Shown here one piece after another: positions 5,544 to 28,787 of a stretch of DNA of 40,302 bases (position 1 is the stretch's first letter; each line of letters begins with the position of its first letter). The translations under genes were made by a program, and so were the position numbers. This DNA is from a virus (Duplodnaviria > Heunggongvirae > Uroviricota > Caudoviricetes). Below the pieces are notes generated by a model. The model was not told where the DNA came from. It saw only the letters and a program-made list of their open reading frames with translations, and made no database searches. The stretch lies in the IMG/VR virus record IMGVR_UViG_2654588006_000003. One strand, written 5' to 3'.

Positions 5544-5544
5544 A

Positions 5545-8039: not shown

Positions 8040-8079
8040 GTGTTGATTTCAGGTCATGAGGTAATTTTAAGGGGGACTT

Positions 8080-11836: not shown

Positions 11837-12272
11837 AACCAAGATCGATTCGGTTGAGTGCATATCCATTCATAGGGTAGATTCTTAAGTCGCGTTTCTG
11901 GTGTTCATTTTCGGGTGGTTTGTTACTTGTTTTACCGGGGATATGCCAGAAACGCGCTGAGTCAGTCTGGGCGGTGCGCGTAATGAGGCGTTATGGTAAA
12001 TAGCCTATGCTAATGTCCGCTAAGAGCAAGAAGCGGAAGTTGGCAGTTTTGTGGACTGTCCCCACAAAAGTGACTACAGAAATAGTTGCAATTCATAATT
12101 GATCATGGGTTGTCAGTTAAACTCGTGGCGATTTAAATAGACTAATTGGGAGTGCGTCCATTACTTATATCTTGTAATGTTAACTATCAGAAATGATACA
12201 AAGATAATATGTCTTTAAAGAAAAGGCTGATGGCGAAAAGTGGCCCGATGAGGGCCACAATACGGCTGTCAC

Positions 12273-12605: not shown

Positions 12606-12627
12606 AGATTTCTCCTTTTAAAAAAGC

Positions 12628-12655
12628 ACTATCGGCATGCACAAAAAAATCTTTA
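12628..12655 (-). promoter_or_regulatory. Sigma-28 (FliA) type promoter for flxA
   Basis: Minus strand reads TAAAG - 15 nt - GCCGATAG about 20 nt upstream of the flxA start, matching the TAAA-N15-GCCGATAA consensus. Confidence 0.65.
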
Positions 12656-12807
12656 ATCGTATTTCTTGTGTCATTAATTGTTTGATGTTCAGATTGTTTT
12701 CCTCGCGGGCTGGCGCGCCTCAGAAAGTAAAGCTTGTTGACAGGGGTAAACGTTCGGCAATAATTTTCTGCCGCATGCGGGTGTTGCATAAAACGTGTTA
12801 CGTTCCT

Positions 12808-13113
12808 TTATCGACAGGTCAGGTCACCGCTCACCCGCCGACGAGAAAGCAACACTGACATGCTAAAGCAAAAAATAGATGAATAAGTTGAGTTGTGCAT
12901 ATGTAGCCTGACCGTCACAAAGTATATGGTGTCTGTACCAGTAAGATGATGGCCGGACTCTTTAAAAACGAGCTGACCTGCACAATACAGGATGGACTTA
13001 GCAATGGCTGCTCCTGGCACAAAGCGGACAGTGATCACCGTTCTTACGACTACTTTCTGACTTCCTTCGTGACTTGCCCTAAGCATGTTGTAGTGCGATA
13101 CTTGTAATGACAT
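12808..13113 (-). CDS. ydfV: YdfV-like hypothetical ORF (101 aa)
   Basis: ORF of matching size and position between flxA and relB; overlaps the relBE promoter region; possibly not a real gene. Confidence 0.3.
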   Translation of the reverse strand: MSLQVSHYNMLRASHEGSQKVVVRTVITVRFVPGAAIAKSILYCAGQLVFKESGHHLTGTDTIYFVTVRLHMHNSTYSSIFCFSMSVLLSRRRVSGDLTCR

Positions 13114-13126
13114 TTGTAATTACAAG
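13101..13126 (+). promoter_or_regulatory. relBE operator (palindromic repeats)
   Basis: cttgtaatgacatttgtaattacaag immediately upstream of relB; ttgtaat/attacaa inverted repeats. Confidence 0.6.
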
Positions 13127-13137
13127 AGGTGTAAGAC

Positions 13138-13377
13138 ATGGGTAGCATTAACCTGCGTATTGACGATGAACTTAAAGCGCGTTCTTACGCCGCGCTTGAA
13201 AAAATGGGTGTAACTCCTTCTGAAGCGCTTCGTCTCATGCTCGAGTATATCGCTGACAATGAACGCTTGCCGTTCAAACAGACACTCCTGAGTGATGAAG
13301 ATGCTGAACTTGTGGAGATAGTGAAAGAACGGCTTCGTAATCCTAAGCCAGTACGTGTGACGCTGGATGAACTCTGA
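13138..13377 (+). CDS. relB: RelB antitoxin (79 aa)
   Basis: ORF track; sequence MGSINLRIDDELKARSYA... recognised; stop overlaps relE start (TGATG). Confidence 0.95.
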   Translation: MGSINLRIDDELKARSYAALEKMGVTPSEALRLMLEYIADNERLPFKQTLLSDEDAELVEIVKERLRNPKPVRVTLDEL

Positions 13378-13664
13378 TGGCGTATTTTCTGGATTTTGAC
13401 GAGCGGGCACTAAAGGAATGGCGAAAGCTGGGCTCGACGGTACGTGAACAGTTGAAAAAGAAGCTGGTTGAAGTACTTGAGTCACCCCGGATTGAAGCAA
13501 ACAAGCTCCGTGGTATGCCTGATTGTTACAAGATTAAGCTCCGGTCTTCAGGCTATCGCCTTGTATACCAGGTTATAGACGAGAAAGTTGTCGTTTTCGT
13601 GATTTCTGTTGGGAAAAGAGAACGCTCGGAAGTATATAGCGAGGCGGTCAAACGCATTCTCTGA
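13377..13664 (+). CDS. relE: RelE mRNA interferase toxin (95 aa)
   Basis: ORF track; sequence recognised; coupled to relB. Confidence 0.95.
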   Translation: MAYFLDFDERALKEWRKLGSTVREQLKKKLVEVLESPRIEANKLRGMPDCYKIKLRSSGYRLVYQVIDEKVVVFVISVGKRERSEVYSEAVKRIL

Positions 13665-13735
13665 ACCAAAGCATGACATCTCTGTTTCGCACCGAAGGTG
13701 ACACTTCTGCTTTGCGTTGACAGGAGAAGCAGGCT

Positions 13736-13891
13736 ATGAAGCAGCAAAAGGCGATGTTAATCGCCCTGATCGTCATCTGTTTAACCGTCATAGTGACGGC
13801 ACTGGTAACGAGGAAAGACCTCTGCGAGGTACGAATCCGAACCGGCCAGACGGAGGTCGCTGTCTTCACAGCTTACGAACCTGAGGAGTAA
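13736..13891 (+). CDS. hokD: HokD (RelF) Hok-family membrane toxin (51 aa)
   Basis: Hand translation MKQQKAMLIALIVICLTVIVTALVTRKDLCEVRIRTGQTEVAVFTAYEPEE; below ORF-track cut-off. Confidence 0.85.
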   Translation: MKQQKAMLIALIVICLTVIVTALVTRKDLCEVRIRTGQTEVAVFTAYEPEE

Positions 13892-13959
13892 GAGACCCGG
13901 CGGGGGAGAAATCCCTCGCCACCTCTGATGTGGCAGGCATCCTCAACGCACCCGCACTT

Positions 13960-13986
13960 AACCCGCTTCGGCGGGTTTTTGTTTTT
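13960..13986 (+). terminator. Rho-independent terminator after relBE-hokD
   Basis: cccgc-ttcg-gcggg stem-loop followed by a T-run. Confidence 0.65.
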
Positions 13987-14107
13987 ATTTTCAACGCGTT
14001 TGAAGTTCTGGACGGTGCCGGAATAGAATCAAAAATACTTAAGTAGCGCGCAGGGATAAGAGGGATGGTCCCTTAAAGGGGAGAGCTAATTATCCGGAAG
14101 GATTCTG

Positions 14108-14359
14108 ATGATGAACATCGAAGAACTGCGTAAAATTTTTTGTGAAGATGGCCTCTATGCTGTGTGCGTTGAAAATGGAAATCTTGTTAGTCATTACCGC
14201 ATTATGTGTTTGCGAAAGAATGGGGCTGCGTTAATTAATTTTGTGGATGCTCGGGTCACGGACGGATTTATCTTGCGCGAAGGTGAGTTTGTCACTTCAT
14301 TACAGGCATTGAAAGAGATCGGAATAAAAGCTGGCTTTTCTGCTTTTTCAGGAGAATAA
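14108..14359 (+). CDS. rem: Rem (83 aa), unknown function
   Basis: ORF track; size and position between hokD and ydfU. Confidence 0.75.
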   Translation: MMNIEELRKIFCEDGLYAVCVENGNLVSHYRIMCLRKNGAALINFVDARVTDGFILREGEFVTSLQALKEIGIKAGFSAFSGE

Positions 14360-14425
14360 ACTCATCTACAATCTTGCGCGGGGCTGAACTCCCGCTGAGT
14401 AACACCGTGCCACCGGAGAAAACCG

Positions 14426-14704
14426 ATGGCACGCAACGCAAAATATTACAATTCTGATAATTCGCCCGTTCTTGCCTGCACGCACGGGCGGTATTCTCAC
14501 GCATTCAAGTCTGAATGGTTCCAGCACCCTCCATGCACTGCAGAACAGGCCGAATGGCTGATTCATTCTTACCGCAGGCGCGGGTTCGAGGTTAAGAAAG
14601 CTCTCAGTCTCGACTATCGGCACTGGATAATCTCTGTCAGGCTGCCTTATTCAGAACGCCCACCACGTGCGTCCCGCACTTTCCAGCAACGGATCTGGAG
14701 GTAA
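14426..14704 (+). CDS. Hypothetical protein (92 aa)
   Basis: ORF with GGAG 9 nt upstream of ATG; ends 1 nt before the proposed GTG start of ydfU; protein-like composition. Confidence 0.4.
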   Translation: MARNAKYYNSDNSPVLACTHGRYSHAFKSEWFQHPPCTAEQAEWLIHSYRRRGFEVKKALSLDYRHWIISVRLPYSERPPRASRTFQQRIWR

Positions 14705-14705
14705 C

Positions 14706-15755
14706 GTGCGGGTATTACTTAGACCTGTTCTGGTGCCTGAGCTTGGGCTGGTGGTCCTTAAGCCGGGCCGTGAATCCATACAGATATTTCATAATCCTCG
14801 AGTGCTGGTGGAACCGGAACCAAAAAGCATGCGTAATCTGCCATCCGGAGTCGTTCCTGCCGTTCGCCAGCCGCTGGCGGAAGACAAAACATTGCTGCCG
14901 TTTTTTAGTAACGAACGGGTGATTCGTGCTGCTGGCGGCGTTGGCGCATTGTCCGACTGGCTATTACGTCATGTTACATCCTGCCAGTGGCCTAATGGCG
15001 ATTACCATCACACTGAAACAGTCATTCACCGTTATGGTACCGGCGCAATGGTGTTGTGCTGGCACTGCGACAACCAACTGCGTGACCAGACATCGGAATC
15101 ACTGGAGCTGCTTGCTCAACAAAATCTGACAGCATGGGTGATTGACGTCATCCGTCACGCAATAAGCGGTACGCAGGAGCGGGAATTATCTTTGGCTGAA
15201 TTATCCTGGTGGGCGGTCTGCAATCAGGTGGTGGATGCACTACCTGAGGCTGTATCGCGTCGTTCGCTGGGATTACCAGCGGAAAAAATCTGCTCGGTGT
15301 ACCGCGAAAGCGACATCGTACCGGGAGAGCAGACCGCCACCAGCATATTGAAACAACGCACAAAAAATCTTGCACCGTTGCCTTACGCCCACCAGCAACA
15401 AAAATCACCACAGGAAAAGACGGTGGTAAGCATCACCGTTGATCCAGAGTCTCCGGAATCTTTCATGAAGCTGCCTAAACGTCGCCGCTGGGTTAAGGAG
15501 AAATACACACGTTGGGTTAAGACACAGCCGTGTGCTTGCTGCGGTATGCCAGCCGACGATCCGCATCATCTGATTGGTCACGGGCAGGGCGGAATGGGAA
15601 CAAAAGCACATGATCTCTTTGTGTTGCCTTTGTGCAGAAAGCATCACAACGAGCTGCATACGGATACAGTGGCATTTGAAGATAAGTATGGCTCCCAACT
15701 GGAGCTGATATTTCGTTTTATCGATCGCGCGCTGGCAATTGGCGTACTGGCGTAA
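14706..15755 (+). CDS. ydfU: YdfU-like DUF968 protein (349 aa)
   Basis: ORF track 14667..15755; in-frame GTG at 14706 gives the 349-aa length recalled for YdfU; C-terminal Cys/His-rich region (CACCGMPADDPHHLIGHG...CRKHHNELH). Confidence 0.7.
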   Translation: MRVLLRPVLVPELGLVVLKPGRESIQIFHNPRVLVEPEPKSMRNLPSGVVPAVRQPLAEDKTLLPFFSNERVIRAAGGVGALSDWLLRHVTSCQWPNGDYHHTETVIHRYGTGAMVLCWHCDNQLRDQTSESLELLAQQNLTAWVIDVIRHAISGTQERELSLAELSWWAVCNQVVDALPEAVSRRSLGLPAEKICSVYRESDIVPGEQTATSILKQRTKNLAPLPYAHQQQKSPQEKTVVSITVDPESPESFMKLPKRRRWVKEKYTRWVKTQPCACCGMPADDPHHLIGHGQGGMGTKAHDLFVLPLCRKHHNELHTDTVAFEDKYGSQLELIFRFIDRALAIGVLA

Positions 15756-15768
15756 GTGGAGAACGAGC

Positions 15769-16521
15769 ATGAACCTTGAAGCCTTACCAAAATATTACTC
15801 CCCAAAATCTCCAAAATTGAGCGATGACGCTCCAGCGACAGGCACCGGTTGTTTAACAATTACGGATGTAATGGCAGCGCAGGGGATGGTGCAGTCGAAA
15901 GCACCACTTGGGTTGGCCTTATTTCTGGCAAAAGTTGGTGTTCAGGACCCTCAGTTTGCGATTGAAGGCCTGCTAAATTACGCGATGGCACTGGATAACC
16001 CGACATTGAACAAATTGAGTGAAGAAATCCGGTTACAGATTATTCCTTACCTCGTGAGTTTTGCCTTTGCTGATTACTCCAGGTCTGCGGCAAGTAAGGC
16101 TCGCTGTGAGCATTGTTCAGGTACGGGATTTTATAATGTATTGCGCGAAGTGGTGAAACACTACAGACGCGGGGAATCTGTAATCAAGGAAGAATGGGTG
16201 AAGGAACTATGTCAGCATTGCCATGGTAAGGGCGAAGCCAGCACAGCGTGCAGAGGGTGTAAGGGTAAAGGGATTGTTCTGGATGAAAAAAGAACCCGGT
16301 TTCATGGCGTACCGGTATATAAGATTTGTGGGCGTTGTAATGGAAACCGGTTTAGTCGTTTACCGACCACGCTGGCACGACGTCATGTCCAGAAGCTGGT
16401 ACCAGACCTGACCGATTATCAGTGGTATAAGGGGTATGCGGACGTCATTGGTAAACTGGTAACAAAGTGCTGGCAGGAAGAAGCATACGCGGAAGCGCAA
16501 TTGAGGAAGGTGACGAGATAA
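15769..16521 (+). CDS. quuQ: Q-like late antiterminator (250 aa)
   Basis: ORF track 15739..16521; Met at codon 11 (MNLEALPKYY); Cys-rich zinc-binding motifs (CEHCSGTG, CQHCHGKG, CRGCKGKG, CGRCNG). Confidence 0.85.
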   Translation: MNLEALPKYYSPKSPKLSDDAPATGTGCLTITDVMAAQGMVQSKAPLGLALFLAKVGVQDPQFAIEGLLNYAMALDNPTLNKLSEEIRLQIIPYLVSFAFADYSRSAASKARCEHCSGTGFYNVLREVVKHYRRGESVIKEEWVKELCQHCHGKGEASTACRGCKGKGIVLDEKRTRFHGVPVYKICGRCNGNRFSRLPTTLARRHVQKLVPDLTDYQWYKGYADVIGKLVTKCWQEEAYAEAQLRKVTR

Positions 16522-16626
16522 ATGATTTTTGCTGAAGATGGCGACATGATGTTTGCATTTTTCAAAAAATATGGATAAAATTTTTTCAACGATGGGCTTT
16601 GTATACCCGACGTTAAGAAAAAGTAG

Positions 16627-16656
16627 AAAACCCGCTGATGAGCGGGTTTTGTGCTT
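16627..16656 (+). terminator. Rho-independent terminator downstream of quuQ
   Basis: cccgct-gatg-agcggg stem followed by tttt; T/A-rich on both sides so may act bidirectionally. Confidence 0.6.
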
Positions 16657-16942
16657 TAAATGGGGCAATGGTAATGTTGAATCTCATCCCGGGACTCATG
16701 TCTGTTAACTTATTATTTAGCTGGTGACTTGGTTATTTGCCTGATGTTTAAAATGTTTTCTTCCAGTACAATGTCCCTAAACACAATGAGTCTGCTTATT
16801 ATATTATTAGCAGAGCTATTACGGCCAAAGTACAGCATAAGCTTTTAAAGCCAATCAACCAGTCATCAAGACAGACGGGGTTATTCATAAAAACTCTCCA
16901 TGTGTGATCCGATGGGGCCTGAAATTAAAGCTTTAATATAGC

Positions 16943-17155
16943 TCATGAAAGGTAAACATTGGCAGCTGAAGGGCCACGCAGACCATTTATCCGGCAAAAT
17001 TCCACGCGTAATCCGGTGGTAATTTCTTCTGCATCGCGGAGATTGAGCGCTGAAACATGAAGCTGGACATCGATACGACCATCGGATGGGGTGATAAGAC
17101 CCTTGCCGCTTTTGCCGTCAAAGGTTTTGACAATTCCTGTCATTTTACGGGACAA
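16943..17155 (-). CDS. cspF: Cold-shock protein family member CspF (70 aa)
   Basis: ORF track; CSD fold signature; sequence recognised. Confidence 0.9.
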
Positions 17156-17455
17156 AAAAATTCCTTAATACTGATAACTTGGCGCACTATACACACGTTC
17201 CTGAAGAAAGCTATAGTTTTTTGATGGGGTTGAAGATGGCTGGATGTCTAAAATAAACATTGCTTCATATGTTCAACTATGCGTTAATGATTGCGTCGGT
17301 TTGAAGAACAGACGATATACGAAGTAGTTTACTAAAGCAGTTCTCATTTCAGGTGTTATTCACTTATTCCTTCTTTGAGTCTCTCCAATTAAGTACGAAG
17401 TCGTTTCTGTTATGCAAACCATTTATGCCGAAAGGCTCAAGTTAAGGAATGTAGA

Positions 17456-17671
17456 ATGTCAAATAAAATGACTGGTTTAGTAAAATGGTTTAACGCTGAT
17501 AAAGGTTTCGGCTTTATTTCTCCTGTTGATGGTAGTAAAGATGTGTTTGTGCATTTTTCTGCGATTCAGAATGATAATTATCGAACCTTATTTGAAGGTC
17601 AAAAGGTTACCTTCTCTATAGAGAGTGGTGCTAAAGGTCCTGCAGCAGCAAATGTCATCATTACTGATTAA
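17456..17671 (+). CDS. cspB: Cold-shock protein CspB (71 aa)
   Basis: ORF track; [21 protein letters not shown]... with RNP motifs; long AT-rich 5' leader. Confidence 0.9.
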
Positions 17672-17952
17672 AATTCATCGCTCGTCTGTATACGATAACG
17701 AAGAAGGCTGATGCCTGAGTAGAGATACGGACAGAGTAGTGAATATTGGATCTCTTTAATAAAAAGTAAGGAGGTCCAATACATGAAACAATGGCTAGCA
17801 TATTTGGCAAAATCTTAATCAGGAAAAGTATGCTAACCATTGTGGTGAAGTGCAGGTTTGCTGCATGAATAGTTTTACAGCAGAAGCTAACTGCTGGCAT
17901 GGCAAAACAAAGTGCGTAAGTGGATGACTCCCACAAAAAGCACCACAATCTC

Positions 17953-17977
17953 AAACCCGCTCAGGCGGGTTTTTTAT
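17953..17977 (+). terminator. Rho-independent terminator after cspB
   Basis: cccgc-tcag-gcggg stem plus T7 run. Confidence 0.7.
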
Positions 17978-18034
17978 TATCTGCTTTAAATATATTATTA
18001 AAATATAAAAAATACTTGTTACTAATAAAATCAA

Positions 18035-18205
18035 TCAGGCTACAGCTTTAAGATTTGTCTGGAATACTTTGTTGCAATGAGGGCAGATCAAAAGGGCACC
18101 TTTTTGTACTCTTGAAAAACTGTGTTCTGACTCTTGGGTGCAGTTTGGGCAGGAACATTTAACGAGATAATTACGGCGTGATTTTGAGTTTTTACGTTCT
18201 GACAT
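18035..18205 (-). CDS. Small zinc-ribbon protein (56 aa)
   Basis: Internal ATG (MSERKNSKSRRNYLVKCSCPNCTQ...CPHCNKVF) of ORF 18035..18256; two CxxC pairs. Confidence 0.5.
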   Translation of the reverse strand: MSERKNSKSRRNYLVKCSCPNCTQESEHSFSRVQKGALLICPHCNKVFQTNLKAVA

Positions 18206-18424
18206 AGGCTTTTCCTGTATAAATGGCCGTATACAGTACACTAAATATGAAAACATTTCTCGTATTATTATTTTATATATGACTTTCTTTCAAAATAATT
18301 ACCCACATTTTTAATGTGTATGTTTTTTTAGCGCCGTTGAGAACAACGTGTGCTGTCAAAACTACCCCGTAGACTCCGATCTTTTCAAACATATTGCACC
18401 ATCCGTGTACATCGGGGTGAGGAT

Positions 18425-18640
18425 ATGAAATCAATGGATAAGTTAACAACAGGTGTTGCCTATGGCACATCGGCGGGTAATGCTGGTTTCTGGGCATTGC
18501 AGTTACTCGATAAAGTAACTCCGTCACAGTGGGCTGCAATCGGTGTGCTGGGTAGCCTGGTTTTTGGCCTGCTGACGTATCTGACAAATCTTTATTTCAA
18601 GATTAAAGAAGACAGGCGTAAGGCTGCGAGAGGAGAGTAA
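18425..18640 (+). CDS. essQ: Class II holin / pinholin, S21-like (71 aa)
   Basis: [23 protein letters not shown]... from internal ATG of ORF 18350..18640; two Met codons (M1, M4) form a dual-start motif; precedes a SAR endolysin. Confidence 0.9.
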
Positions 18641-18644
18641 TCCA

Positions 18645-18952
18645 ATGACTCAAGACTATGAACTGGTTGTGAAAGGAGTCCGTAATTTTGAGAATAAAGT
18701 TACGGTAACTGTAGCCTTACAGGACAAAGAACGCTTTGACGGTGAAATTTTTGACCTGGATGTCGCCATGGACCGTGTTGAAGGAGCTGCGCTGGAGTTT
18801 TATGAGGCAGCAGCCAGAAGGAGCGTCCGGCAAGTCTTCCTGGAAGTAGCAGAAAAATTGTCAGAAAAAGTTGAGTCTTATCTGCAGCATCAGTACTCCT
18901 TTAAGATTGAAAATCCTGCCAATAAGCACGAGCGTCCTCATCATAAATATCT

Positions 18953-18956
<4 letters not shown>
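18645..18956 (+). CDS. ydfR: YdfR-like protein (103 aa), unknown function
   Basis: ORF track; sits between holin and endolysin. Confidence 0.75.
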
Positions 18957-19980
<1,024 letters not shown>

Positions 19981-20342
19981 GGTAATATTAAATCGGAACA
20001 TTTACATCGCGGAATGTAAAATTTAAATAAAAAGGACTCTTCCATGAGCCAAAATTCCTGAAATCTTAAGGGTAAGATAAAAGGTCTTAATCAGAATGAC
20101 ACGTTTTATTAATAAATAAAGCTATTCTTTCATTGCTGTGTTTTTCTTTACAAAAGTAATCCTTGCTATGGGTGGTTAATCATGCGTTAATGGTGTTCTG
20201 GTTTGTTACAAATTTATCTGAAGCAGTCATTGTTATAATTTTATTATTTGTACCTCTTGAGATTTCCTTGTTGGTTTTTCTCTCTGATATTTTTTTTCGG
20301 ACCATTCTGCCCAAGGGCTAATTTCTTCAAAAGGTAATAATT

Positions 20343-20555
20343 ATGTCTAACAAAATGACTGGTTTAGTGAAATGGTTTAACCCTGAAAAAGGTTTTGGTT
20401 TCATCACGCCGAAAGATGGCAGCAAAGATGTGTTTGTCCATTTCTCAGCAATTCAGAGCAACGATTTCAAAACATTAACTGAGAATCAGGAAGTTGAATT
20501 TGGTATTGAGAACGGACCTAAAGGTCCTGCCGCTGTTCATGTAGTGGCGCTTTGA
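20343..20555 (+). CDS. cspI: Cold-shock protein CspI (70 aa)
   Basis: ORF track; CSD signature [23 protein letters not shown]... Confidence 0.9.
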
Positions 20556-20589
20556 GGTAGACAATATTACAAACCATATTCACTTTAGA

Positions 20590-20752
20590 TGCCCGTGTTG
20601 TCATGGTTCCCAGTATAGAACATCATCTTTTGATGTTTCTGACATGAATCCTTTCGGGGCAAAATGTATCTTTTGTAAATCAATGATGATTACATTTGAT
20701 AATATTTCACAATACTTAAATGCCAGCCGTCTGTCGTTGGATTTAAAAAAGT
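20590..20752 (+). CDS. ynfN: YnfN-like small zinc-ribbon protein; start codon unclear
   Basis: Open frame ...RCPCCHGSQYRTSSFDVSDMNPFGAKCIFCKSMMITFDNISQYLNASRLSLDLKK ending TGA 20750..20752; no in-frame ATG before codon Met-21 (20644). Symbol from memory. Confidence 0.35.
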
Positions 20753-20759
20753 GAAAATG

Positions 20760-20783
20760 AAGGCTCCTTCGGGAGCTTTTTTG
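20760..20783 (+). terminator. Rho-independent terminator
   Basis: gctcc-ttcg-ggagc stem followed by a T6 run. Confidence 0.65.
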
Positions 20784-20864
20784 CTTGGTGTCTATTCGAT
20801 GGATACTCACATACTACGGTAACATCATGAAAAAAATCATAGTTTTTTTAACTCTGAACCAGCA

Positions 20865-21056
20865 GTGGTAGTGCCAGCGATGACTGGAGTTAACACCATC
20901 ATGCGTGAATATCCAAATGGCGAAAAAACACACCTTACTGTAATGGCCGCAGGGTTTCCATCTCTGACCGGAGATCATAAAGTCATTTATGTAGCCGCGG
21001 ATCGACATGTTACTTCAGAAGAAATTCTGGAAGCAGCAATAAGGCTCTTGAGTTGA
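20865..21056 (+). CDS. Hypothetical small protein (63 aa)
   Basis: ORF track only; protein-like composition but no recognised family and weak RBS. Confidence 0.25.
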   Translation: MVVPAMTGVNTIMREYPNGEKTHLTVMAAGFPSLTGDHKVIYVAADRHVTSEEILEAAIRLLS

Positions 21057-21225
21057 TTTGATGCTATTGCATTGATAATTCAGGAAAATTCTCTTTGTCT
21101 GTTTGTGTAAAATTTAGACTATCGTATGTTGATTATTGCGATGTTTCATCTTATCTTTTACACGTTTGCACCATATAATCGACTTACTGTGTAACTGGAA
21201 AGTCATAACAGACTAAAAGAGGAAA

Positions 21226-21401
21226 TGATGAATATTGAAAACTTAAAAACAAAAGCAGAAGCAGATATTTCTGAATATATAACAAAAAAAATTATTGAAC
21301 TTAAGAAAAAGACCGGGAAAGAAGTTACCAGTATTCAGTTTACCGCACGGGAAAAAATGACGGGTCTTGAAAGCTATGATGTCAAGATTAATTTAATCTG
21401 A
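21226..21401 (+). pseudogene. gnsB: gnsB-like gene with 5' frameshift
   Basis: ATGATGAATATTGAA (MMNIE) runs into TAA after 6 codons; the GnsB-like body (...LKTKAEADISEYITKKIIELKKKTGKEVTSIQFTAREKMTGLESYDVKINLI) continues in another frame to TGA 21399..21401. Confidence 0.5.
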
Positions 21402-21552
21402 TGTATTCAATAATAAAATTTATCCATAAACCTCGTTTTTACGGGGTTTTGTTATATTTGAATGGTTCCGAATATCTAAATCACAATTGTTGATGGTTTT
21501 TATTAAACCAATGCAGTCCGGCTCAGGAGTGAGAGAAGCCGGACGTTATGGT

Positions 21553-21963
21553 TTAGCGTGGTAAGATCTGTGTAGTTTTCTGGATGCTTTCAGTAAATAG
21601 TAATGAATTATCAAAGGTATAGTAATATCTTTTTTGTTCGTGGATATTTGTAACCCACCGAAAAACTCCTGCTTTAGCAAGGTTTCTTCTGTATTCCTGA
21701 AATGTGATCTCTCTGGATTTCAGCTTATTAGAGGTCGTTTCTATAAGATGCCTATCCTTTGAAAATTTGACAGACACAATGTTTTTTAGGCCCTTTAATA
21801 ACACTGTATTATCATTTTTTAATACAATATGAACATTCTCTGTGGCTAAATAGTAAATGTAATGTGAGACATTGTGACGTTTTAGCTCAGAATAAAACCA
21901 TTGATAGTTTAAATCGTTTCGAACTTTATCAAATATTTGTTTAAAAATGACTACCTGATCCAT
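21553..21963 (-). CDS. ydfO: YdfO-like DUF1398 protein (136 aa)
   Basis: Internal ATG ([14 protein letters not shown]...) of ORF 21553..21978; sequence recognised. Confidence 0.85.
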
Positions 21964-22020
21964 AGATAAACCTTCCATGTGATATGAGGGGGCGTAGTCT
22001 GCACGATTATCTAAATTGCT

Positions 22021-22254
22021 TCAATCTGGTCTGACCTGTTTTCTGAGCAATTCAGTAATGTCACTCTTTTCTTTGTTTGCTTCAGAAGAAACTCTTTTTT
22101 CTGAGCACAGTCTCCGGCGGCAGGCTTCAATGACCCAGGCTGAGAAATTCCCGGACCCTTTTTGCTCAAGAGCGATGTTAATTTGTTCAATCATTTGGTT
22201 AGGAAAGCGGATGTTGCGGGTTGTTGTTCTGCGGGTTCTGTTCTTCGTTGACAT
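22021..22254 (-). CDS. Small ribbon-helix-helix-like DNA-binding protein (77 aa)
   Basis: ORF track; basic N-terminus then beta-strand/helix pattern (TRNIRFPNQMIEQINIALEQKGSGNFSAWVIEACRRRL); lies just upstream of cos. Confidence 0.5.
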   Translation of the reverse strand: MSTKNRTRRTTTRNIRFPNQMIEQINIALEQKGSGNFSAWVIEACRRRLCSEKRVSSEANKEKSDITELLRKQVRPD

Positions 22255-22419
22255 GAGGTTGCCCCGTATTCAGTGTCGCTGATTTGTATTGTCTGAAGTT
22301 GTTTTTACGTTAAGTTGATGCAGATCAATTAATACGATACCTGCGTCATAATTGATTATTTGACGTGGTTTGATGGCCTCCACGCACGTTGTGATATGTA
22401 GATGATAATCATTATCACT

Positions 22420-22640
22420 TTACGGGTCCTTTCCGGTGATCCGACAGGTTACGGGGCGGCGACCTCGCGGGTTTTCGCTATTTATGAAAATTTTCCGGTT
22501 TAAGGCGTTCCGTTCTTCTTCGTCATAACTTAATGTTTTTATTTAAAATACCCCCTGAAAAGAAAGGAAACGACAGGTGCTGAAAACGAGCTTTTGGGCC
22601 TCTGTCGTTTCCTTTCTCTGTTTTTGGCCGTGGAATGAAC
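22420..22640 (+). other. Lambda-type cohesive end site (cosQ-cosN-cosB)
   Basis: Sequence ...ccgacaggttacg/GGGCGGCGACCT/cgcgggttttcgctatttatgaaaattttccgg... matches the joined lambda right and left ends; 12-nt cohesive end at 22454..22465; lies about 190 bp upstream of Nu1. Confidence 0.85.
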
Positions 22641-22641
22641 A

Positions 22642-23187
22642 ATGGAAGTCAACAAAAAGCAGCTGGCTGACATTTTCGGTGCGAGTATCCGTACCATTCA
22701 GAACTGGCAGGAACAGGGAATGCCCGTTCTGCGAGGCGGTGGCAAGGGTAATGAGGTGCTTTATGACTCTGCCGCCGTTATAAGATGGTATGCCGAAAGG
22801 GATGCTGAAATTGAGAACGAAAAGCTGCGCCGGGAAGTTGAAGAACTGCGGCAGGCCAGCGAGGCAGATCTCCAGCCAGGGACTATTGAGTACGAACGCC
22901 ATCGACTTACGCGTGCGCAGGCCGACGCACAGGAACTGAAGAATGCCAGAGACTCCGCTGAAGTGGTGGAAACCGCATTCTGTACTTTCGTGCTGTCGCG
23001 GATCGCAGGTGAAATTGCCAGTATTCTCGACGGGATCCCCCTGTCGGTGCAGCGGCGTTTTCCGGAACTGGAAAACCGACATGTTGATTTCCTGAAACGG
23101 GATATCATCAAAGCCATGAACAAAGCAGCCGCGCTGGATGAACTGATACCGGGGTTGCTGAGTGAATATATCGAACAGTCAGGTTAA
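22642..23187 (+). CDS. nohA: Terminase small subunit, lambda Nu1-type (181 aa)
   Basis: ORF track; MEVNKKQLADIFGASIRTIQNWQEQGMPVLRGGGKGNEVLYDSAAV... near-identical to lambda Nu1 as recalled; overlaps A by 26 nt as in lambda. Confidence 0.95.
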   Translation: MEVNKKQLADIFGASIRTIQNWQEQGMPVLRGGGKGNEVLYDSAAVIRWYAERDAEIENEKLRREVEELRQASEADLQPGTIEYERHRLTRAQADAQELKNARDSAEVVETAFCTFVLSRIAGEIASILDGIPLSVQRRFPELENRHVDFLKRDIIKAMNKAAALDELIPGLLSEYIEQSG

Positions 23188-25087
23188 CAGGCTGCGGCAT
23201 TTTGTCCGCGCCGGGCTTCGCTCACTGTTCCGGCCGGAGCCACAGACCGCCGTTGAATGGGCGGATGCCAATTACTATCTCCCGAAAGAATCCGCATACC
23301 AGGAAGGGCGCTGGGAAACACTGCCCTTTCAGCGGGCCATCATGAATGCGATGGGCAGTGACTACGTCCGCGAGGTGAATGTGGTGAAGTCTGCCCGTGT
23401 TGGTTATTCCAAAATGCTGCTGGGTGTTTATGCCTACTTCATAGAGCATAAGCAGCGCAACACCCTTATCTGGTTGCCGACGGATGGTGATGCCGAGAAC
23501 TTTATGAAAACCCACGTTGAGCCGACCATCCGCGATATTCCGTCGCTGCTGGCGCTGGCTCCGTGGTATGGCAAAAAGCACCGGGATAACACGCTCACCA
23601 TGAAGCGTTTTTCCAATGGTCGTGGCTTCTGGTGCCTGGGCGGTAAAGCGGCAAAAAACTACCGTGAAAAGTCGGTGGATGTGGCGGGTTATGATGAACT
23701 TGCTGCCTTTGATGAGGATATTGAACAGGAAGGCTCTCCGACGTTCCTGGGCGATAAGCGTATTGAAGGCTCGGTCTGGCCAAAGTCCATCCGTGGCTCC
23801 ACGCCCAAAGTGAGAGGCACCTGCCAGATTGAGCGTGCAGCCAGTGAATCCCCGCATTTTATGCGTTTTCATGTTGCCTGCCCGCACTGCGGGGAGGAGC
23901 AGTACCTTAAATTTGGCGATAAAGAGACGCCGTTTGGCCTCAAATGGACGCCGGATGACCCCTCCAGCGTGTTTTATCTCTGCGAGCATAACGCCTGCGT
24001 CATCCGTCAGCAGGAGCTGGACTTCACTGATGCCCGTTATATCTGCGAAAAGACCGGGATCTGGACCCGTGATGGCATTCTCTGGTTTTCGTCATCCGGT
24101 GAAGAGATTGAACCGCCTGACAGCGTGACCTTTCACATCTGGACGGCGTACAGCCCGTTCACCACCTGGGTGCAGATTGTCAAAGACTGGATGAAGACGA
24201 AAGGGGATACGGGAAAACGTAAAACCTTCGTGAACACCACGCTCGGTGAGACGTGGGAAGCGAAAATCGGTGAACGTCCGGATGCTGAAGTGATGGCAGA
24301 GCGGAAAGAGCATTATTCAGCGCCCGTTCCTGACCGTGTGGCTTACCTGACCGCCGGTATCGACTCCCAGCTGGATCGCTACGAAATGCGCGTTTGGGGA
24401 TGGGGGCCGGGTGAGGAAAGCTGGCTGATTGACCGGCAGATTATTATGGGCCGCCACGACGATGAACAGACGCTGCAGCGTGTGGATGAGGCCATCAATA
24501 AAACCTATACCCGCCGGAATGGTGCAGAAATGTCGGTATCCCGTATCTGCTGGGATACTGGCGGGATTGACCCTACCATTGTGTATGAACGCTCGAAAAA
24601 ACATGGGCTGTTCCGGGTGATCCCCATTAAAGGGGCATCCGTCTACGGTAAGCCGGTGGCCAGCATGCCACGTAAGCGAAACAAAAACGGGGTTTACCTT
24701 ACCGAAATCGGTACGGATACCGCGAAAGAGCAGATTTATAACCGCTTCACACTGACGCCGGAAGGGGATGAACCGCTTCCCGGTGCCGTTCACTTCCCGA
24801 ATAACCCGGATATTTTTGATCTGACCGAAGCGCAGCAGCTGACTGCTGAAGAGCAGGTCGAAAAATGGGTGGATGGCAGGAAAAAAATACTGTGGGACAG
24901 CAAAAAGCGACGCAATGAGGCGCTCGACTGCTTCGTTTATGCGCTGGCGGCGCTGCGCATCAGTATTTCCCGCTGGCAGCTGGATCTCAGTGCACTGCTG
25001 GCGAGCCTGCAGGAAGAGGATGGTGCAGCAACCAACAAGAAAACACTGGCAGATTACGCCCGTGCCTTATCCGGAGAGGATGAATGA
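23162..25087 (+). CDS. A: Terminase large subunit, lambda gpA-type (641 aa)
   Basis: ORF track; length and sequence ([43 protein letters not shown]...) match lambda A. Confidence 0.95.
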
Positions 25088-26448
25088 CGCGACAGGAAGA
25101 ACTTGCCGCTGCCCGTGCGGCACTGCATGACCTGATGACAGGTAAACGGGTGGCAACGGTACAGAAAGACGGGAAAATCCTGCAGGCAGATTACAACACG
25201 CTGATGGCGGCGGCGAAAAAGGACTATGAAGCGACGCTGAAAAAGCCGAAACAGTCCGGCGTGAAGGTGTCTGCGGGCGATCGTCAGGAAGACAGTGCTC
25301 ATGCTGCCCTGCTGACGCTTCAGGCTGAACTCCGGACGCTGGAGAAGCATGCCGGAGCAAATGAGAAAATCAGCCAGCAGCGCCGGGATTTGTGGAAGGC
25401 GGAGAGTCAGTTCGCGGTACTGGAGGAGGCGGCGCAACGTCGCCAGCTGTCTGCACAGGAGAAATCCCTGCTGGCGCATAAAGATGAGACGCTGGAGTAC
25501 AAACGCCAGCTGGCTGCACTTGGCGACAAGGTTACGTATCAGGAGCGCCTGAACGCGCTGGCGCAGCAGGCGGATAAATTCGCACAGCAGCAACGGGCAA
25601 AACGGGCCGCCATTGATGCGAAAAGCCGGGGGCTGACTGACCGGCAGGCAGAACGGGAAGCCACGGAACAGCGCCTGAAGGAACAGTATGGCGATAATCC
25701 GCTGGCGCTGAATAACGTCATGTCAGAGCAGAAAAAGACCTGGGCGGCTGAAGACCAGCTTCGCGGGAGCTGGATGGCAGGCCTGAAGTCCGGCTGGAGT
25801 GAGTGGGAAGAGAGCGCCACGGACAGTATGTCGCAGGTAAAAAGTGCAGCCACGCAGACCTTTGATGGTATTGCACAGAATATGGCGGCGATGCTGACCG
25901 GCAGTGAGCAGAACTGGCGCAGCTTCACCCGTTCCGTGCTGTCCATGATGACAGAAATTCTGCTTAAGCAGGCAATGGTGGGGATTGTCGGGAGTATCGG
26001 CAGCGCCATTGGCGGGGCTGTTGGTGGCGGCGCATTCGCGTCAGGCGGTACAGCCATTCAGGCCGCTGCGGCGAAATTCCATTTTGCAACCGGAGGATTC
26101 ACAGGAACCGGCGGCAAATATGAGCCAGCGGGGATTGTTCACCGTGGTGAATTTGTCTTCACGAAGGAGGCAACCAGCCGGATTGGCGTGGGGAATCTCT
26201 ACCGGCTGATGCGCGGCTATGCCACCGGTGGTTATGTCGGTACACCGGGCAGTCTGGCTGACAGCCGGTCGCAGGCGTCCGGGACGTTTGAGCAGAATAA
26301 CCATGTGGTGATTAACAACGACGGCACGAACGGGCAGATAGGTCCGGCTGCTCTGAAGGCGGTGTATGACATGGCCCGCAAGGGTGCCCGTGATGAAATT
26401 CAGACACAGATGCGTGATGGTGGCCTGTTCTCCGGAGGTGGACGATGA
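25084..26448 (+). CDS. In-frame fusion of head-tail joining protein W N-terminus (about 30 aa) to tape-measure protein H C-terminal part (about 424 aa)
   Basis: Starts [30 protein letters not shown] (lambda W start, overlapping A stop), then continues as a Gln/Ala-rich tape-measure-like sequence ending GGLFSGGGR with ATGA overlap to M, as at the lambda H/M junction. Confidence 0.8.
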
Positions 26449-26774
26449 AAACCTTCCGCTGGAAAGTGAAACCCGGTATGGATGTGGCTTCGGCCCCTTC
26501 TGTAAGAAAGGTGCGCTTTGGTGATGGCTATTCCCAGCGAGCGCCTGCCGGGCTGAATGCCAACCTGAAAACGTACAGCGTGACGCTTTCTGTCCCCCGT
26601 GAGGAGGCCACGGTACTGGAGTCGTTTCTGGAAGAGCACGGTGGCTGGAAATCCTTTCTGTGGACGCCGCCTTATGAGTGGCGGCAGATAAAGGTGACCT
26701 GCGCAAAATGGTCGTCGCGGGTCAGTATGCTGCGTGTTGAGTTCAGCGCAGAGTTTGAACAGGTGGTGAACTGA
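26445..26774 (+). CDS. M: Tail tip protein M (109 aa)
   Basis: ORF track; [16 protein letters not shown]... matches lambda M; overlaps the H-derived ORF stop. Confidence 0.95.
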
Positions 26775-27472
26775 TGCAGGATATCCGGCAGGAAACACTG
26801 AATGAATGCACCCGTGCGGAGCAGTCGGCCAGCGTGGTGCTCTGGGAAATCGACCTGACAGAGGTCGGTGGAGAACGTTATTTTTTCTGTAATGAGCAGA
26901 ACGATAAAGGTGAGCCGGTCACCTGGCAGGGGCGACAGTATCAGGCGTATCCCATTCAGGGGACGGGATTTGAACTGAACGGCAAAGGCAGTGCTGCCCG
27001 TCCGACACTGACGGTTTCTAACCTGCACGGCATGGTCACCGGGATGGCGGAAGATCTGCAGAGTCTGGTCGGCGGAACGGTGGTCCGGCGTAAGGTTTAC
27101 GCCCGTTTTCTGGATGCGGTGAACTTCGTCAACGGAAACAGTGACGCCGATCCGGAGCAGGAGGTGATCAGCCGCTGGCGCATTGAGCAGTGCAGCGAAC
27201 TGAGCGCGGTGAGTGCCTCTTTTGTACTGTCCACGCCGACGGAAACGGACGGCGCTGTTTTTCCGGGACGTATCATGCTGGCCAACACCTGCACCTGGAC
27301 CTATCGCGGCGATGAGTGCGGTTATCACGGTCCGGCGGTCGCGGATGAATATGACCAGCCAACGTTCGATATCACGAAGGATAAATGCAGCAAATGCCTG
27401 AGTGGCTGTAAGTTTCGCAATAACGTCGGCTCCCTTTTCGGGTTCCTTTCCCTTAAAAAGCTTTCCCAGTAA
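26774..27472 (+). CDS. L: Tail tip protein L (232 aa)
   Basis: ORF track; [42 protein letters not shown]... matches lambda L; C-terminal Cys cluster. Confidence 0.95.
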   Translation: MQDIRQETLNECTRAEQSASVVLWEIDLTEVGGERYFFCNEQNDKGEPVTWQGRQYQAYPIQGTGFELNGKGSAARPTLTVSNLHGMVTGMAEDLQSLVGGTVVRRKVYARFLDAVNFVNGNSDADPEQEVISRWRIEQCSELSAVSASFVLSTPTETDGAVFPGRIMLANTCTWTYRGDECGYHGPAVADEYDQPTFDITKDKCSKCLSGCKFRNNVGSLFGFLSLKKLSQ

Positions 27473-27476
27473 TCCC

Positions 27477-28220
27477 ATGACAGAGACAGAATCAGCGATT
27501 CTGGCGCACGCCCTGCGATGTGCGCCAGCGGAGTCGTGCGGCTTCGTGGTGAGAGCGCCGGAGGGGGAAAGATATTTTCCCTGCGTGAATATTTCCGGTG
27601 AGCCGGAGGATTATTTCCGGATGGCTCCGGAGGACTGGCTGCAGGCAGAGATGCAGGGTGAGATTGTGGCGCTGGTCCACAGCCACCCCGGTGGTCTGCC
27701 CTGGCTGAGTGAGGCCGACCGGCGGCTGCAGGTGCAGAGTGATTTGCCGTGGTGGCTGGTCTGCCGTGGGGAGATTCATAAATTCCGCTGTGTGCCGTAT
27801 CTCACCGGGCGGCGCTTTGAGCACGGGGTGACGGACTGTTACACGCTGTTCCGGGATGCTTACCATCTGGCGGGGATTGAGATGCCGGATTTTCATCGCG
27901 AGGATGACTGGTGGCGTCACGGTCAGAATCTCTATCTGGATAATCTGGAGGCCACAGGGCTGTATCAGGTGCCGTTGTCAGCGGCGCAGCCGGGCGATGT
28001 GCTGCTGTGCTGTTTTGGTTCATCGGTGCCGAATCATGCCGCCATTTACTGCGGCGACGGCGAGCTGCTGCACCATATTCCTGAACAACTGAGCAAACGA
28101 GAGAGGTATACCGACAAATGGCAGCGACGCACACACTCCCTCTGGCGTCACCGGGCATGGCACGCATCTGCCTTTACGGGGATTTACAACGATTTGGCCG
28201 CCGCATCGACCTTCGTGTGA
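27477..28220 (+). CDS. K: Tail tip assembly protein K (MPN/JAB plus NlpC/P60-like domains)
   Basis: ORF 27402..28220 with ATG at 27477 (MTETESAIL); HSHPGG JAB motif and Cys/His peptidase-like motif; an alternative internal start at about 27618 (MAPEDW) would give the 199-aa form. Confidence 0.9.
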   Translation: MTETESAILAHALRCAPAESCGFVVRAPEGERYFPCVNISGEPEDYFRMAPEDWLQAEMQGEIVALVHSHPGGLPWLSEADRRLQVQSDLPWWLVCRGEIHKFRCVPYLTGRRFEHGVTDCYTLFRDAYHLAGIEMPDFHREDDWWRHGQNLYLDNLEATGLYQVPLSAAQPGDVLLCCFGSSVPNHAAIYCGDGELLHHIPEQLSKRERYTDKWQRRTHSLWRHRAWHASAFTGIYNDLAAASTFV

Positions 28221-28787
28221 AAACGGGGGCCGAAGCCATCCGGGCGCTGGCCACGCAGCTTCCGTCGTTTCGTCAGAAACTGAGCGACGGCTGGTATCAG
28301 GTACGCATTGCCGGGCGTGATACAGGTGAAACGGAATATCAGCCCGTCTTATGAACCGCTGGCAAATGGTGCTGTGATCCATATCGTGCCGGGTCTGGCA
28401 GGAGCCAAAAGTGGCGGTGTATTCCAGATTGTCCTGGGAGCAGCCTTTCAGGCGGGCTCAGTCGTGACGGCCGGAGCCGCCGTTGCAGCATGGGGGGCAG
28501 CCATTGGGGCCGGTGGTATGTCATGCATCATGTTTTCTCTGGGTGCCAGTATGGTACTTGGTGGTGTGGCGCAGATGCTGGCACCGAAAGCCAGAACTCC
28601 CAGTACACAGACAACGGATAACGGCAAGCAGAACACGTATTTCTCCTCACTGGATAACATGGTTGCCCAGGGCAATGTTCTGCCCGTTCTGTACGGTGAA
28701 ATGCGCGTGGGGTCGCGGGTGGTATCTCAGGAAATCAGCACGGCAGACGAAGGGGACGGTGGTCAGGTTGTGGTGATTGGTCGCTGA
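28118..28787 (+). pseudogene. I: Tail tip assembly protein I, split by a frameshift
   Basis: N-terminal 68 residues in ORF 28118..28354 (MAATHTLPLASPGMARICLYGDLQRFGRRIDLRVKTGAEAIRALATQLP...), C-terminal about 139 residues in a different frame in ORF 28308..28787 (...GAVIHIVPGLAGAKSGGVFQIVLGAA...VVVIGR); total span 670 nt, not a multiple of 3. Confidence 0.8.

Follow-up and report, generated by a model that had tools for sequence, protein, structure and literature searches.

A lambda-type cos site and full-length terminase genes beside a head and tail gene deletion in a Qin-type Escherichia coli prophage

Results

The window analysed here, a stretch of 40,302 bp (IMG/VR record IMGVR_UViG_2654588006_000003), carries a Qin-type lambdoid prophage inserted in ydfJ, and very probably derives from E. 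coli O78:H19 strain 789. The prophage is flanked by rspB beside int at one end and by ydfJ' at the other, its gene order is collinear with that of annotated relatives, and the Qin markers dicA, dicC, dicB, DicF, relBE, hokD, cspB/F/I, nohA and pinQ are present, with DicF and cspA elements also found by an Rfam search. The attL copy of the att core lies about 28 bp to the left of window position 1, and the inferred att-to-att unit is approximately 39,045 bp long; in phage PhiR42_1 the same core occurs once, as attP, at 1017. The features on which the following analysis relies are:

22424..22430, + strand: cosQ (GGGTCCT), packaging-termination element; corresponds to lambda 48473-48479, with the upstream 300 bp lambda-identical
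22452..22467, + strand: cosN CGGGGCGGCGACCTCG, flanking nick sites included; lambda-identical and the sole copy in the window
22466..22502, + strand: I2, spacer between cosN and cosB; identical to lambda bp 13-49
22503..22517, + strand: R3, terminase small-subunit binding site, AGGCGTTCCGTTCTT; 1-bp deletion relative to lambda bp 50-65, AGGCGTTTCCGTTCTT
22531..22543, - strand: I1, IHF-type site AATAAAAACATTA in the R3-R2 interval; one mismatch to WATCAANNNNTTR, within a lambda-identical stretch
22561..22576, - strand: R2, exact 16-mer CTGTCGTTTCCTTTCT; same 16-mer at lambda 109-124
22602..22617, + strand: R1, exact 16-mer CTGTCGTTTCCTTTCT; same 16-mer at lambda 151-166
22642..23187, + strand: Nu1 (nohA-type), terminase small subunit, 181 aa; 98.9% identical to lambda Nu1, Pfam Phage_Nu1 E=5.6e-101
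23162..25087, + strand: A, terminase large subunit, 641 aa, GTG start as in lambda; 99.2% identical to lambda gpA, Pfam GpA_ATPase and GpA_nuclease
25084..26448, + strand: W'-'H in-frame fusion ORF, 454 aa; gpW 1-30 joined to gpH ~431-853, Pfam gpW (1-31) and Tape_meas_lam_C
25164..25172, + strand: deletion junction, 9-bp microhomology GAAAGACGG; W codon 30 fused in frame to H codon ~431
39017..39027, + strand: attR core TTATGGATTTC at the truncated start of ydfJ; 11-mer repeated at both prophage ends in the relative L003

The 12-nt cohesive end GGGCGGCGACCT occupies 22454..22465 on the + strand, as the first-pass annotation had placed it, and occurs once in the whole window within lambda-identical surroundings. 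Identity to the joined ends of lambda (NC_001416) extends over 354 bases, made up of the 300 bp upstream of GGGCGGCGACCT and the first 54 bp counted from its start, a stretch that spans cosQ, cosN and I2. We take the 7-mer GGGTCCT at 22424..22430 to be cosQ. A conserved 7-bp cosQ has been described (PMC4669245). Subsite order and orientation (cosQ-cosN-I2-R3-I1-R2-R1) are those of lambda, and cosQ, cosN, I2, I1, R2 and R1 each match either lambda or the deposited phage PhiR42_1. Against the consensus core CGTTTCC, R2 (inverted) and R1 retain exact 16-mers and the R3 core reads CGTTCC. The distance from R1 to cosN is 2 bp shorter than in lambda and 1 bp shorter than in PhiR42_1, and cosB differs from lambda at five more positions (bp 102, 134, 138, 145 and 175), all of which are common to PhiR42_1. 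The site had been described as intact; alignment to lambda bears this out for cosQ, cosN, I2, I1, R2 and R1, but not for R3.

In R3, lambda bp 55-57 TTT are reduced to TT at window 22507/22508. The first-pass annotation had named disruption of the R sites bound by Nu1 among the findings that would tell against a working packaging module, and the R3 deletion is formally a lesion of this kind. It is private to the window: the variant is absent from the relatives compared (L003, L004 and L005), and no 100% match was recovered among 5,487 E. coli cos sites (0/5,487) or 74 phage cos sites (0/74). The deletion, contained in the R3 30-mer CCGGTTTAAGGCGTTCCGTTCTTCTTCGTC, had 0 matches in IMG/VR and JGI metagenomes, while the wild-type R3 pattern returned at least 120 IMG/VR matches.

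Both terminase genes had been described as full length beside the structural deletion, and both are, with neither a stop nor a frameshift. They share the lengths and the overlapping arrangement of the lambda genes; Nu1 differs from lambda at two residues (K48R, L132I) and A at five, all conservative. Pfam PF07471, PF05876 and PF20454 match at full length, describing a complete TerS with its N-terminal winged-HTH domain and a complete TerL with ATPase and nuclease domains. Nu1 and A are common natural alleles, each exact protein sequence being present on at least 1000 public contigs, and on this basis we rejected Nu1 K48R and A L439Q as candidate damaging private changes.

Immediately downstream, the window departs from lambda, in which W and B to T follow the terminase genes: W is truncated and B to T are missing. 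Lambda carries the repeat GAAAGACGG within W (2713-2721) and again within H (11816-11824), which means that 9,103 lambda bp are missing from the window, and in the EH41 and RM10042 prophages the two junction flanks are separated by 9,103-9,104 bp. EH41 carries only the W-side copy of the repeat, whereas lambda has both. Twelve genes are gone with this segment of approximately 9.1 kb (B, C, Nu3, D, E, FI, FII, Z, U, V, G and T), none of which has a tblastn match anywhere in the window; W has also lost its 3' part and H its 5' half (residues 1-~430). Tail gene I is frameshifted, and the tail-tip genes M, L, K, J, lom, stf and tfa are still present. The window thus falls short of a complete, viable lambdoid phage, which needs portal, protease/scaffold, major capsid and head completion genes as well as those for the tail tube, terminator, chaperones and an entire tape measure, and the element is no longer able to make heads or tails. 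The first-pass annotation was right that no head gene is left and that the deletion is real in the sequence; its description of a prophage lacking head genes understates the loss, as most tail genes have gone too.

The junction is spanned in 0 of 5,426 complete E. coli genomes, a 41-mer across it (GGTGGCAACGGTACAGAAAGACGGGAAAATCCTGCAGGCAG) has no match in genome_contigs or metagenome_contigs, and the exact W'-'H fusion protein is found on one contig only (AJE55969.1, AC789_1c17150). An independent internal deletion, leaving a cos-nohD-A-W-portal'-'tape measure remnant, was observed in CFSAN004176 and five other genomes.

To the left of the junction, positions 1..25172 are 99.885% identical to the prophage of O55:H7 USDA5905 and 99.75% identical to PhiR42_1 (PV340562.1), both of which have a complete lambda-like head/tail module. 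All 30 PhiR42_1 CDS checked in this part map to the window, 28 of them intact with at most 2 aa differences; the two exceptions are A, with 3 aa differences, and ynfN, which is frameshifted. Genes required at other stages of the phage cycle, namely int, xis, the repressor/cro pair (dicA/dicC), an O-like gene, Q, holin and lysozyme, are intact and identical or nearly identical to those of PhiR42_1. Phage PhiR42_1 and full-length Qin-site prophages such as those of USDA5905 and EH41 use the same ydfJ site and the same att core, are 99.75-99.9% identical to the window over the left 25 kb, and have the same regulatory, early-region, lysis and terminase genes; the window differs from them in lacking 9.1 kb of head/tail genes, in its frameshifted I and ynfN, in the 1-bp deletion in R3, and in carrying a different (mosaic) allele of H'-M-L-K. 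The viability of PhiR42_1 is taken from its GenBank record, which lists a ‘complete genome’ with ECOR13 as host and the attP configuration; a literature search found no paper on it or on sister phages.

The 3.3 kb to the right of the junction (25173..28438) are only 94.6-96.5% identical to complete E. coli genomes, against 98.7-99.9% for the flanks. A search of complete E. coli genomes for a close parent of 25173..28560 gave a best full-length identity of only 96.5%, so that neither the exact parental H allele nor, with it, the true parent's H-side copy of the 9-bp repeat was recovered. The history of the element may be more complex than a single deletion, for example involving recombination with a second lambdoid prophage.

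Discussion

We consider it likely that the window prophage arose recently, by a deletion specific to its strain, from a PhiR42_1-like temperate phage, and that its cos site and terminase genes have been kept through youth rather than for a new role. Under this explanation, a single illegitimate recombination or slippage event between the 9-bp repeats GAAAGACGG in W and H would have removed the roughly 9.1 kb between them, sparing cos, Nu1 and A, which lie just upstream of the breakpoint and would persist since the event is young. That the deletion was a real illegitimate one is indicated by the junction itself, which joins non-homologous genes at a 9-bp microhomology with the reading frame kept. 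Because no second genome is known to carry the deletion, we attribute retention of the packaging module to a lack of time to decay; this recency is read from absence elsewhere, in searches that covered complete E. coli genomes, genome_contigs and metagenome_contigs. Decay, or at least private change, is beginning to show in the 1-bp deletion in R3, the ynfN frameshift and the frameshift in gene I.

The packaging module could already be dead, the R3 deletion abolishing ordered terminase assembly at cosB such that neither the prophage's own terminase nor that of a helper could cut accurately, leaving cos-Nu1-A as a pure fossil. Among the R sites, mutation has its strongest phenotype in R3, packaging is affected by changes at bp 56, 58 and 59, the TerS contact segment is bp 55-63 of R3, and deletion of cosB makes nicking both reduced and inaccurate (PMC9026076); the absence of the variant from some 5,500 natural sites is also what would be expected of a deleterious change tolerable only in a defective prophage. 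However, if the site is aligned from its right-hand side, bp 56-65 are kept, bp 55 alone is altered (T to G), and R3 simply moves 1 bp nearer cosN. Lambda tolerates shifts of one or two bp in the cosN-R3 distance (PMC4669245), which Higgins and Becker, in the form in which they are cited, give as ‘47 +/- 2 bp’. In addition, bp 54, adjoining the lesion, varies in nature (G54A in PhiR42_1), and R2, R1 and I1 are intact. If the register does shift in this way, bp 56-65 are preserved with a spacing change of a size tolerated in lambda; terminase could then still cut the cos site of the window, probably at reduced efficiency, and we hold complete inactivation to be a serious but less probable reading.

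A second possibility, which we think rather improbable, is that the prophage is a defective phage transducible with a helper: on induction it would excise and replicate, its own Q would turn on the late genes, its own or a helper's terminase would cut cos, and 39-kb units would be packaged in helper capsids and tails. Most sequence-level prerequisites for this are present, and to that extent the first-pass reading is supported. The six subsites other than R3 are intact, the terminase is an intact common allele, and the integration, regulatory, early-region and lysis genes (int, xis, dicA/dicC, the O-like gene, Q, holin and lysozyme) are identical or nearly identical to those of PhiR42_1, whose record represents an excised form (attP). 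The unit of approximately 39,045 bp falls within the 38-52 kb that lambda heads accept (PMC9764419). Potential helpers are common, given that lambda-type cos/terminase/tail DNA occurs in 4,976 of 5,426 E. coli genomes, at a median of 3 places in each; in strain 789, one or more further putative prophages are present, including one that carries iss (PMC4313913). Packaging of passive lambda prophages by a helper is experimentally established (PMC4669245).

What weighs on the other side is the private lesion in the most critical R site, within the TerS contact segment, the lone cos, and the restriction of the deletion junction to one genome with no sign of selection. A lone integrated cos is not packaged to completion: lambda-type packaging requires a second, downstream cos, as supplied by tandem prophages or concatemers (PMC4669245). 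The window has a single cos where two in the same orientation, 38-52 kb apart, are needed, and the 39.0-kb unit would fit if excised and replicated; as a lone chromosomal cos is no packaging substrate, the element would therefore first need induction, excision and replication. Its repressor is DicA-like and consists of an HTH domain only, so in the absence of a LexA-type peptidase domain SOS induction is not expected, and a heteroimmune helper would presumably fail to derepress it. The W'-'H tape measure and the partial tail-tip set might moreover hinder assembly of helper tails. Helper-dependent packaging is possible in principle.

The W-H junction, the R3 deletion or both could instead be assembly errors, arising from a chimeric clone, a misjoin between lambdoid prophages or a miscalled base. 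Compared with the closest relative, the window has three 1-bp indels, all of which sit in homopolymer runs, both private indels, including that in R3, lie in T runs, and 2 private indels against 4 private substitutions in 5.9 kb is a high ratio. The assembly was built from about 55,000 Sanger shotgun reads (PMC4313913), E. coli genomes contain several near-identical lambdoid prophages, and the segment that follows the junction on the right does not share the lineage of its flanks. Nevertheless, a 9-bp microhomology with a conserved reading frame is the signature of illegitimate deletion rather than of repeat-driven misassembly, and PCR and primer walking were used to close the chromosome as published (PMC4313913). 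A 454-type homopolymer error in R3 is less likely because the source paper reports Sanger shotgun sequencing (PMC4313913), a chemistry that is not systematically prone to error where three Ts follow one another. We regard an artefact as improbable overall, although the R3 change taken singly may be either a real mutation or a base-calling error, the sequence fitting both.

Least probable of all, and in our view quite unlikely, is that the element is a naturally arisen headless lambdoid phage in active use, still inducible and replicating, with its own terminase, that would travel in the capsids and tails of a co-resident lambda-like phage, whose yield W'-'H may lower.

These readings can be set against known systems. 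As a member of the Qin family (nohA, dicA/B/F, relBE, pinQ), the window prophage resembles the cryptic prophages Qin and DLP12 of K-12 (cos plus the Nu1 homologues nohA/nohD), which likewise keep cos and a Nu1-type gene with their morphogenetic genes deleted. In K-12 Qin the loss covers A through J and extends well beyond; the decay seen here is at an earlier stage, with A complete and M, L, K, J, lom, stf and tfa remaining. Lambda-type cosN sites in defective prophages are a familiar nuisance for lambda workers, and lambda dgal-type lysates and the passive-prophage assay of the Feiss laboratory both provide cos-bearing genomes without morphogenetic genes that are packaged by a co-resident lambda-type phage (PMC4669245), which is the mechanism put forward in the first-pass annotation. 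Those systems, however, start from genomes that have excised and replicate, or from prophages in tandem that supply two cos sites, whereas the window has one chromosomal cos.

Phage-inducible chromosomal islands (PICIs) are small elements. Those of the cos type resemble the window in having a chromosomal lambda-like cosQ/cosN, and need helper capsids; they differ in lacking terminase genes and in using Rpp to redirect the helper TerS to an unrelated equivalent of cosB (PMC9026076). We rejected classification of the window as a cos-type PICI or satellite on account of its 39 kb length, phage cosB, own Nu1/A and PhiR42_1 gene content.

A recent deletion derivative of a PhiR42_1-like phage remains our preferred explanation of the locus, which is an ordinary lambda-family prophage remnant of a known kind, of little import beyond annotation. 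The W-H junction and the R3 variant are both unique among the sequences searched; nothing suggests selection for a packaging role. Were helper packaging to occur, the element and its cargo (relBE, hokD, cold-shock genes and lom) could move, as a classical case of a defective lambda with its helper that would introduce no new principle, and if the element were a headless phage in active use it would exemplify, in a wild strain, the beginning of a transition from phage to satellite. The natural R3 variant is usable as a test substrate for recognition of cosB by terminase. Within the Qin family, the locus captures an early stage of the decay that produced K-12 Qin, in the form of one microhomology-mediated deletion in an otherwise phage-identical genome.

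A Qin-family prophage that has lost its head genes

The flanks of the element (rspB and int on the left, a truncated ydfJ on the right) and its gene content (dicA, dicC, dicB, DicF, relBE, hokD, cspB/F/I and a Q-type antiterminator, as well as essD, rrrQ, nohA, stf, tfa and pinQ) place it in the Qin family of lambdoid prophages. Up to the deletion junction, window 1..25172 is 99.885% identical to a prophage of E. coli O55:H7 USDA5905 and 99.75% identical to Escherichia phage PhiR42_1 (PV340562.1, 48,668 bp, host ECOR13), both of which carry a complete lambda-like head and tail module. The PhiR42_1 record contains a single copy of the 11-bp att core, TTATGGATTTC, which joins the sequences of the prophage right and left ends, indicating that the record is the excised (attP) form; the position of attR in the window, with attL ~28 bp beyond the left end of the window, gives a unit length of ~39,045 bp. 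To the left of the junction, 30 PhiR42_1 coding sequences were compared with the window: 28 of them are intact with 0-2 amino-acid differences, including int, xis, exonuclease VIII, the repressor/cro pair, an O-like protein, Q, holin and lysozyme. The terminase gene A has three differences, and the sole broken gene is ynfN (20827..21056), in which a T run shortened from T8 to T7 at 20843, a private change relative to PhiR42_1 and two close-relative prophage loci (L003 and L004), shifts the reading frame.

Other features of the element
4774..4825, minus strand: DicF sRNA (Rfam gathering score)
5867..6274, minus strand: DicA-like repressor, 135 aa, HTH domain only, no LexA/S24 peptidase domain
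9900..11836: early region with ISNCY-family transposase remnant and pseudogenes, also in PhiR42_1
10277..10448: sok-type antisense RNA (Rfam) in the early region, also in PhiR42_1
10974: C5/C4 length difference between the window and both L003 and PhiR42_1
17295..17687 and 20197..20582, plus strand: cspA-type thermoregulator leaders of cspB and cspI (Rfam gathering score)
36764..36962, plus strand: IS009 inside the tail-fibre assembly gene (Rfam gathering score)
39017..39027: attR core

The window matches lambda (NC_001416) over bp 1-2721 and then from bp 11813 onward, the two alignments overlapping in a 9-bp repeat, GAAAGACGG (window 25164..25172; lambda 2713-2721 in W and 11816-11824 in H). 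In this way 9,103 lambda bp are missing and W' and 'H are joined in frame. In E. coli EH41 and RM10042, the same flanks are separated by 9,103-9,104 bp with the head genes between. The absence of head genes reported in the first-pass annotation was confirmed by tblastn of all lambda morphogenetic proteins against the whole window, in which B, C, Nu3, D, E, FI, FII, Z, U, V, G and T are absent; the loss thus extends to tail genes, taking the tail tube, terminator, chaperones and half of the tape measure.

The W'-'H fusion (25084..26448, 454 aa; Pfam gpW and Tape_meas_lam_C) consists of gpW over residues 1-30 and of gpH from ~431 thereafter. Because it retains the ATGA start/stop overlap with A, its translation along with the rest of the late operon is expected. 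We speculate that a tape measure truncated in this way, without the N-terminal half, might disturb tail assembly in a co-resident lambda-like phage.

Immediately to the right of the junction, a 3.3-kb segment ('H-M-L-K, 25173..28438) is a mosaic allele: its identity is 94.6% to EH41 and no higher than 96.5% to any complete E. coli genome, against 98.7-99.4% for the sequence further right and 98.7-99.9% for the match of the flanks to relatives. Given this low identity to all complete genomes, the exact parent is not in hand: either the deletion parent or a later recombination partner is absent from collections. The tail assembly gene I (28118..28787) is divided over two frames near 28314..28336, coinciding with a drop in lambda similarity from ~97% to ~80%, which may mark the site of a recombination by which the frame was lost.

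Distribution of the deletion

The exact W'-'H protein is known once, as AJE55969.1 (AC789_1c17150) of E. coli strain 789. None of the 5,426 complete RefSeq E. coli genomes has a place that spans the junction, and its 41-mer was not found in GTDB representative genomes or JGI metagenomes; together with the presence of head genes in EH41 and RM10042, this indicates a strain- or lineage-specific deletion, presumably a recent one. Internal deletions that spare cos and terminase recur, with CFSAN004176 and five further genomes (H27-H31) showing the order cos-nohD-A-W-portal'-'tape measure. The arrangement is that of an independent defective prophage at another site (L002, NZ_CP014583.1 5007989-5024706, locus 6344..10963), in which cos-nohD-A-W is followed by a truncated portal fused to what is left of the tape measure (191 aa).

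Terminase and the cos site

Features of the cos-terminase region
22424..22430: cosQ, GGGTCCT
22454..22465, plus strand: cohesive-end 12-mer GGGCGGCGACCT, single occurrence within the window
22503..22517: R3, with a 1-bp deletion
22531..22543: I1, IHF-type site, same as lambda I1
22561..22576, minus strand: R2, exact copy of the lambda 16-mer
22602..22617: R1, exact copy of the lambda 16-mer
22642..23187: Nu1, 181 aa
23162..25087: A, 641 aa, GTG start

Both terminase genes are full-length, as had been claimed. Nu1 (Pfam Phage_Nu1) has two substitutions relative to lambda (K48R, L132I), while A (GpA_ATPase and GpA_nuclease), which overlaps Nu1 as in lambda, has five conservative ones. Each exact protein is found on at least 1000 public contigs, marking them as common natural alleles rather than damaged private variants.

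When 560 bp around GGGCGGCGACCT were aligned to lambda with its right and left ends joined, every base was the same over 300 bp upstream and over the first 54 bp on the downstream side. This stretch takes in cosQ, the 16-bp cosN and the I2 spacer, and its identity reflects homology rather than chance. PhiR42_1 (23499..23730 of its locus, L005) differs 18 bp ahead of the cohesive end, where T is replaced by C between cosQ and cosN (GGTGATCC to GGCGATCC). Within cosB six positions differ from lambda. Five of them (lambda bp 102, 134, 138, 145 and 175) fall between the R sites or beyond R1, and PhiR42_1 has them too, making them natural polymorphisms. The sixth is the loss of one T from the run at lambda bp 55-57, which changes the R3 core from CGTTTCC to CGTTCC. 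The first-pass description of an intact cos therefore holds for cosQ, cosN, I2, I1, R2 and R1, but fails at R3.

The R3 deletion is absent from L003, L004 and PhiR42_1. A 61-bp query centred on it matched 5,487 places spread over 3,960 E. coli genomes, plus 74 in phage records, none at 100%; among the matches listed, the best (98.4%) span 62 bases, the extra base being present. A variant R3 30-mer and its degenerate version had no match in IMG/VR or JGI metagenomes, where the wild-type pattern matched at least 120 IMG/VR contigs. Taken together, these searches identify the change as private. It may be a base-calling error, as the second private indel of the window is likewise in a T run and private indels stand to private substitutions as 2:4 within 5.9 kb; however, the genome of strain 789 (avian pathogenic E. 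coli O78:H19 ST88, CP010315) was obtained by Sanger shotgun (PMC4313913), a chemistry without a systematic problem at a run of three T.

R3 spans bp 50-65, with the TerS contact segment at bp 55-63; packaging suffers from changes at bp 56, 58 and 59, and R3 mutants have the strongest phenotype among the R sites (Murialdo and Feiss, PMC9026076). In the right-aligned register, the sole base change is at bp 55 (T to G), and R3, I1, R2 and R1 all lie 1 bp nearer cosN. Lambda tolerates one- or two-bp shifts (PMC4669245; also Higgins and Becker, as cited elsewhere). On this basis we would expect, at low confidence, that function is reduced rather than abolished. PhiR42_1 naturally carries A in place of G at lambda bp 54, where R3 has its left edge (within the same L005 interval), indicating that some variation beside the R3 core is tolerated in nature.

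Probable passive retention and possible helper packaging

The best-supported reading is passive retention of cos and terminase: a viable PhiR42_1-like phage would have been made defective by one microhomology-mediated deletion, and cos, Nu1 and A would have survived owing to their position immediately left of the breakpoint and the short time since then. This reading also fits the CFSAN004176-type deletions, as well as defective prophages elsewhere. K-12 Qin and DLP12 keep cos with nohA/nohD. Similarly, E. coli C serves lambda workers as indicator because other strains have defective-prophage cosN-lambda (PMC4669245).

The helper-dependent packaging previously suggested for this element is possible but unsupported by signs of selection. 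Its genes for excision, regulation, antitermination and lysis are intact, as are those of the early region, the O-like gene among them; its 39.0-kb unit falls within the 38-52 kb taken by lambda heads (PMC9764419), and 4,976/5,426 E. coli genomes contain packaging and tail DNA of the lambda type. However, one integrated cos is no substrate: a helper can package a repressed prophage only if another cos lies downstream, the situation found in tandem lysogens (PMC4669245), and the element would therefore need induction, excision and replication. Since its DicA-type repressor is without a LexA-like peptidase domain, neither SOS induction nor derepression by a heteroimmune helper would be expected. 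The R3 lesion weakens the case further, and population evidence of maintenance, or other sign of selection, is lacking. The element differs from cos-type PICIs, which are without terminase genes and whose Rpp redirects helper TerS (PMC9026076). If packaging does occur, it would be a classical case of defective lambda plus helper, with no new mechanism. The element is a further instance of a well-known kind, the decaying lambdoid prophage that keeps cos and terminase.
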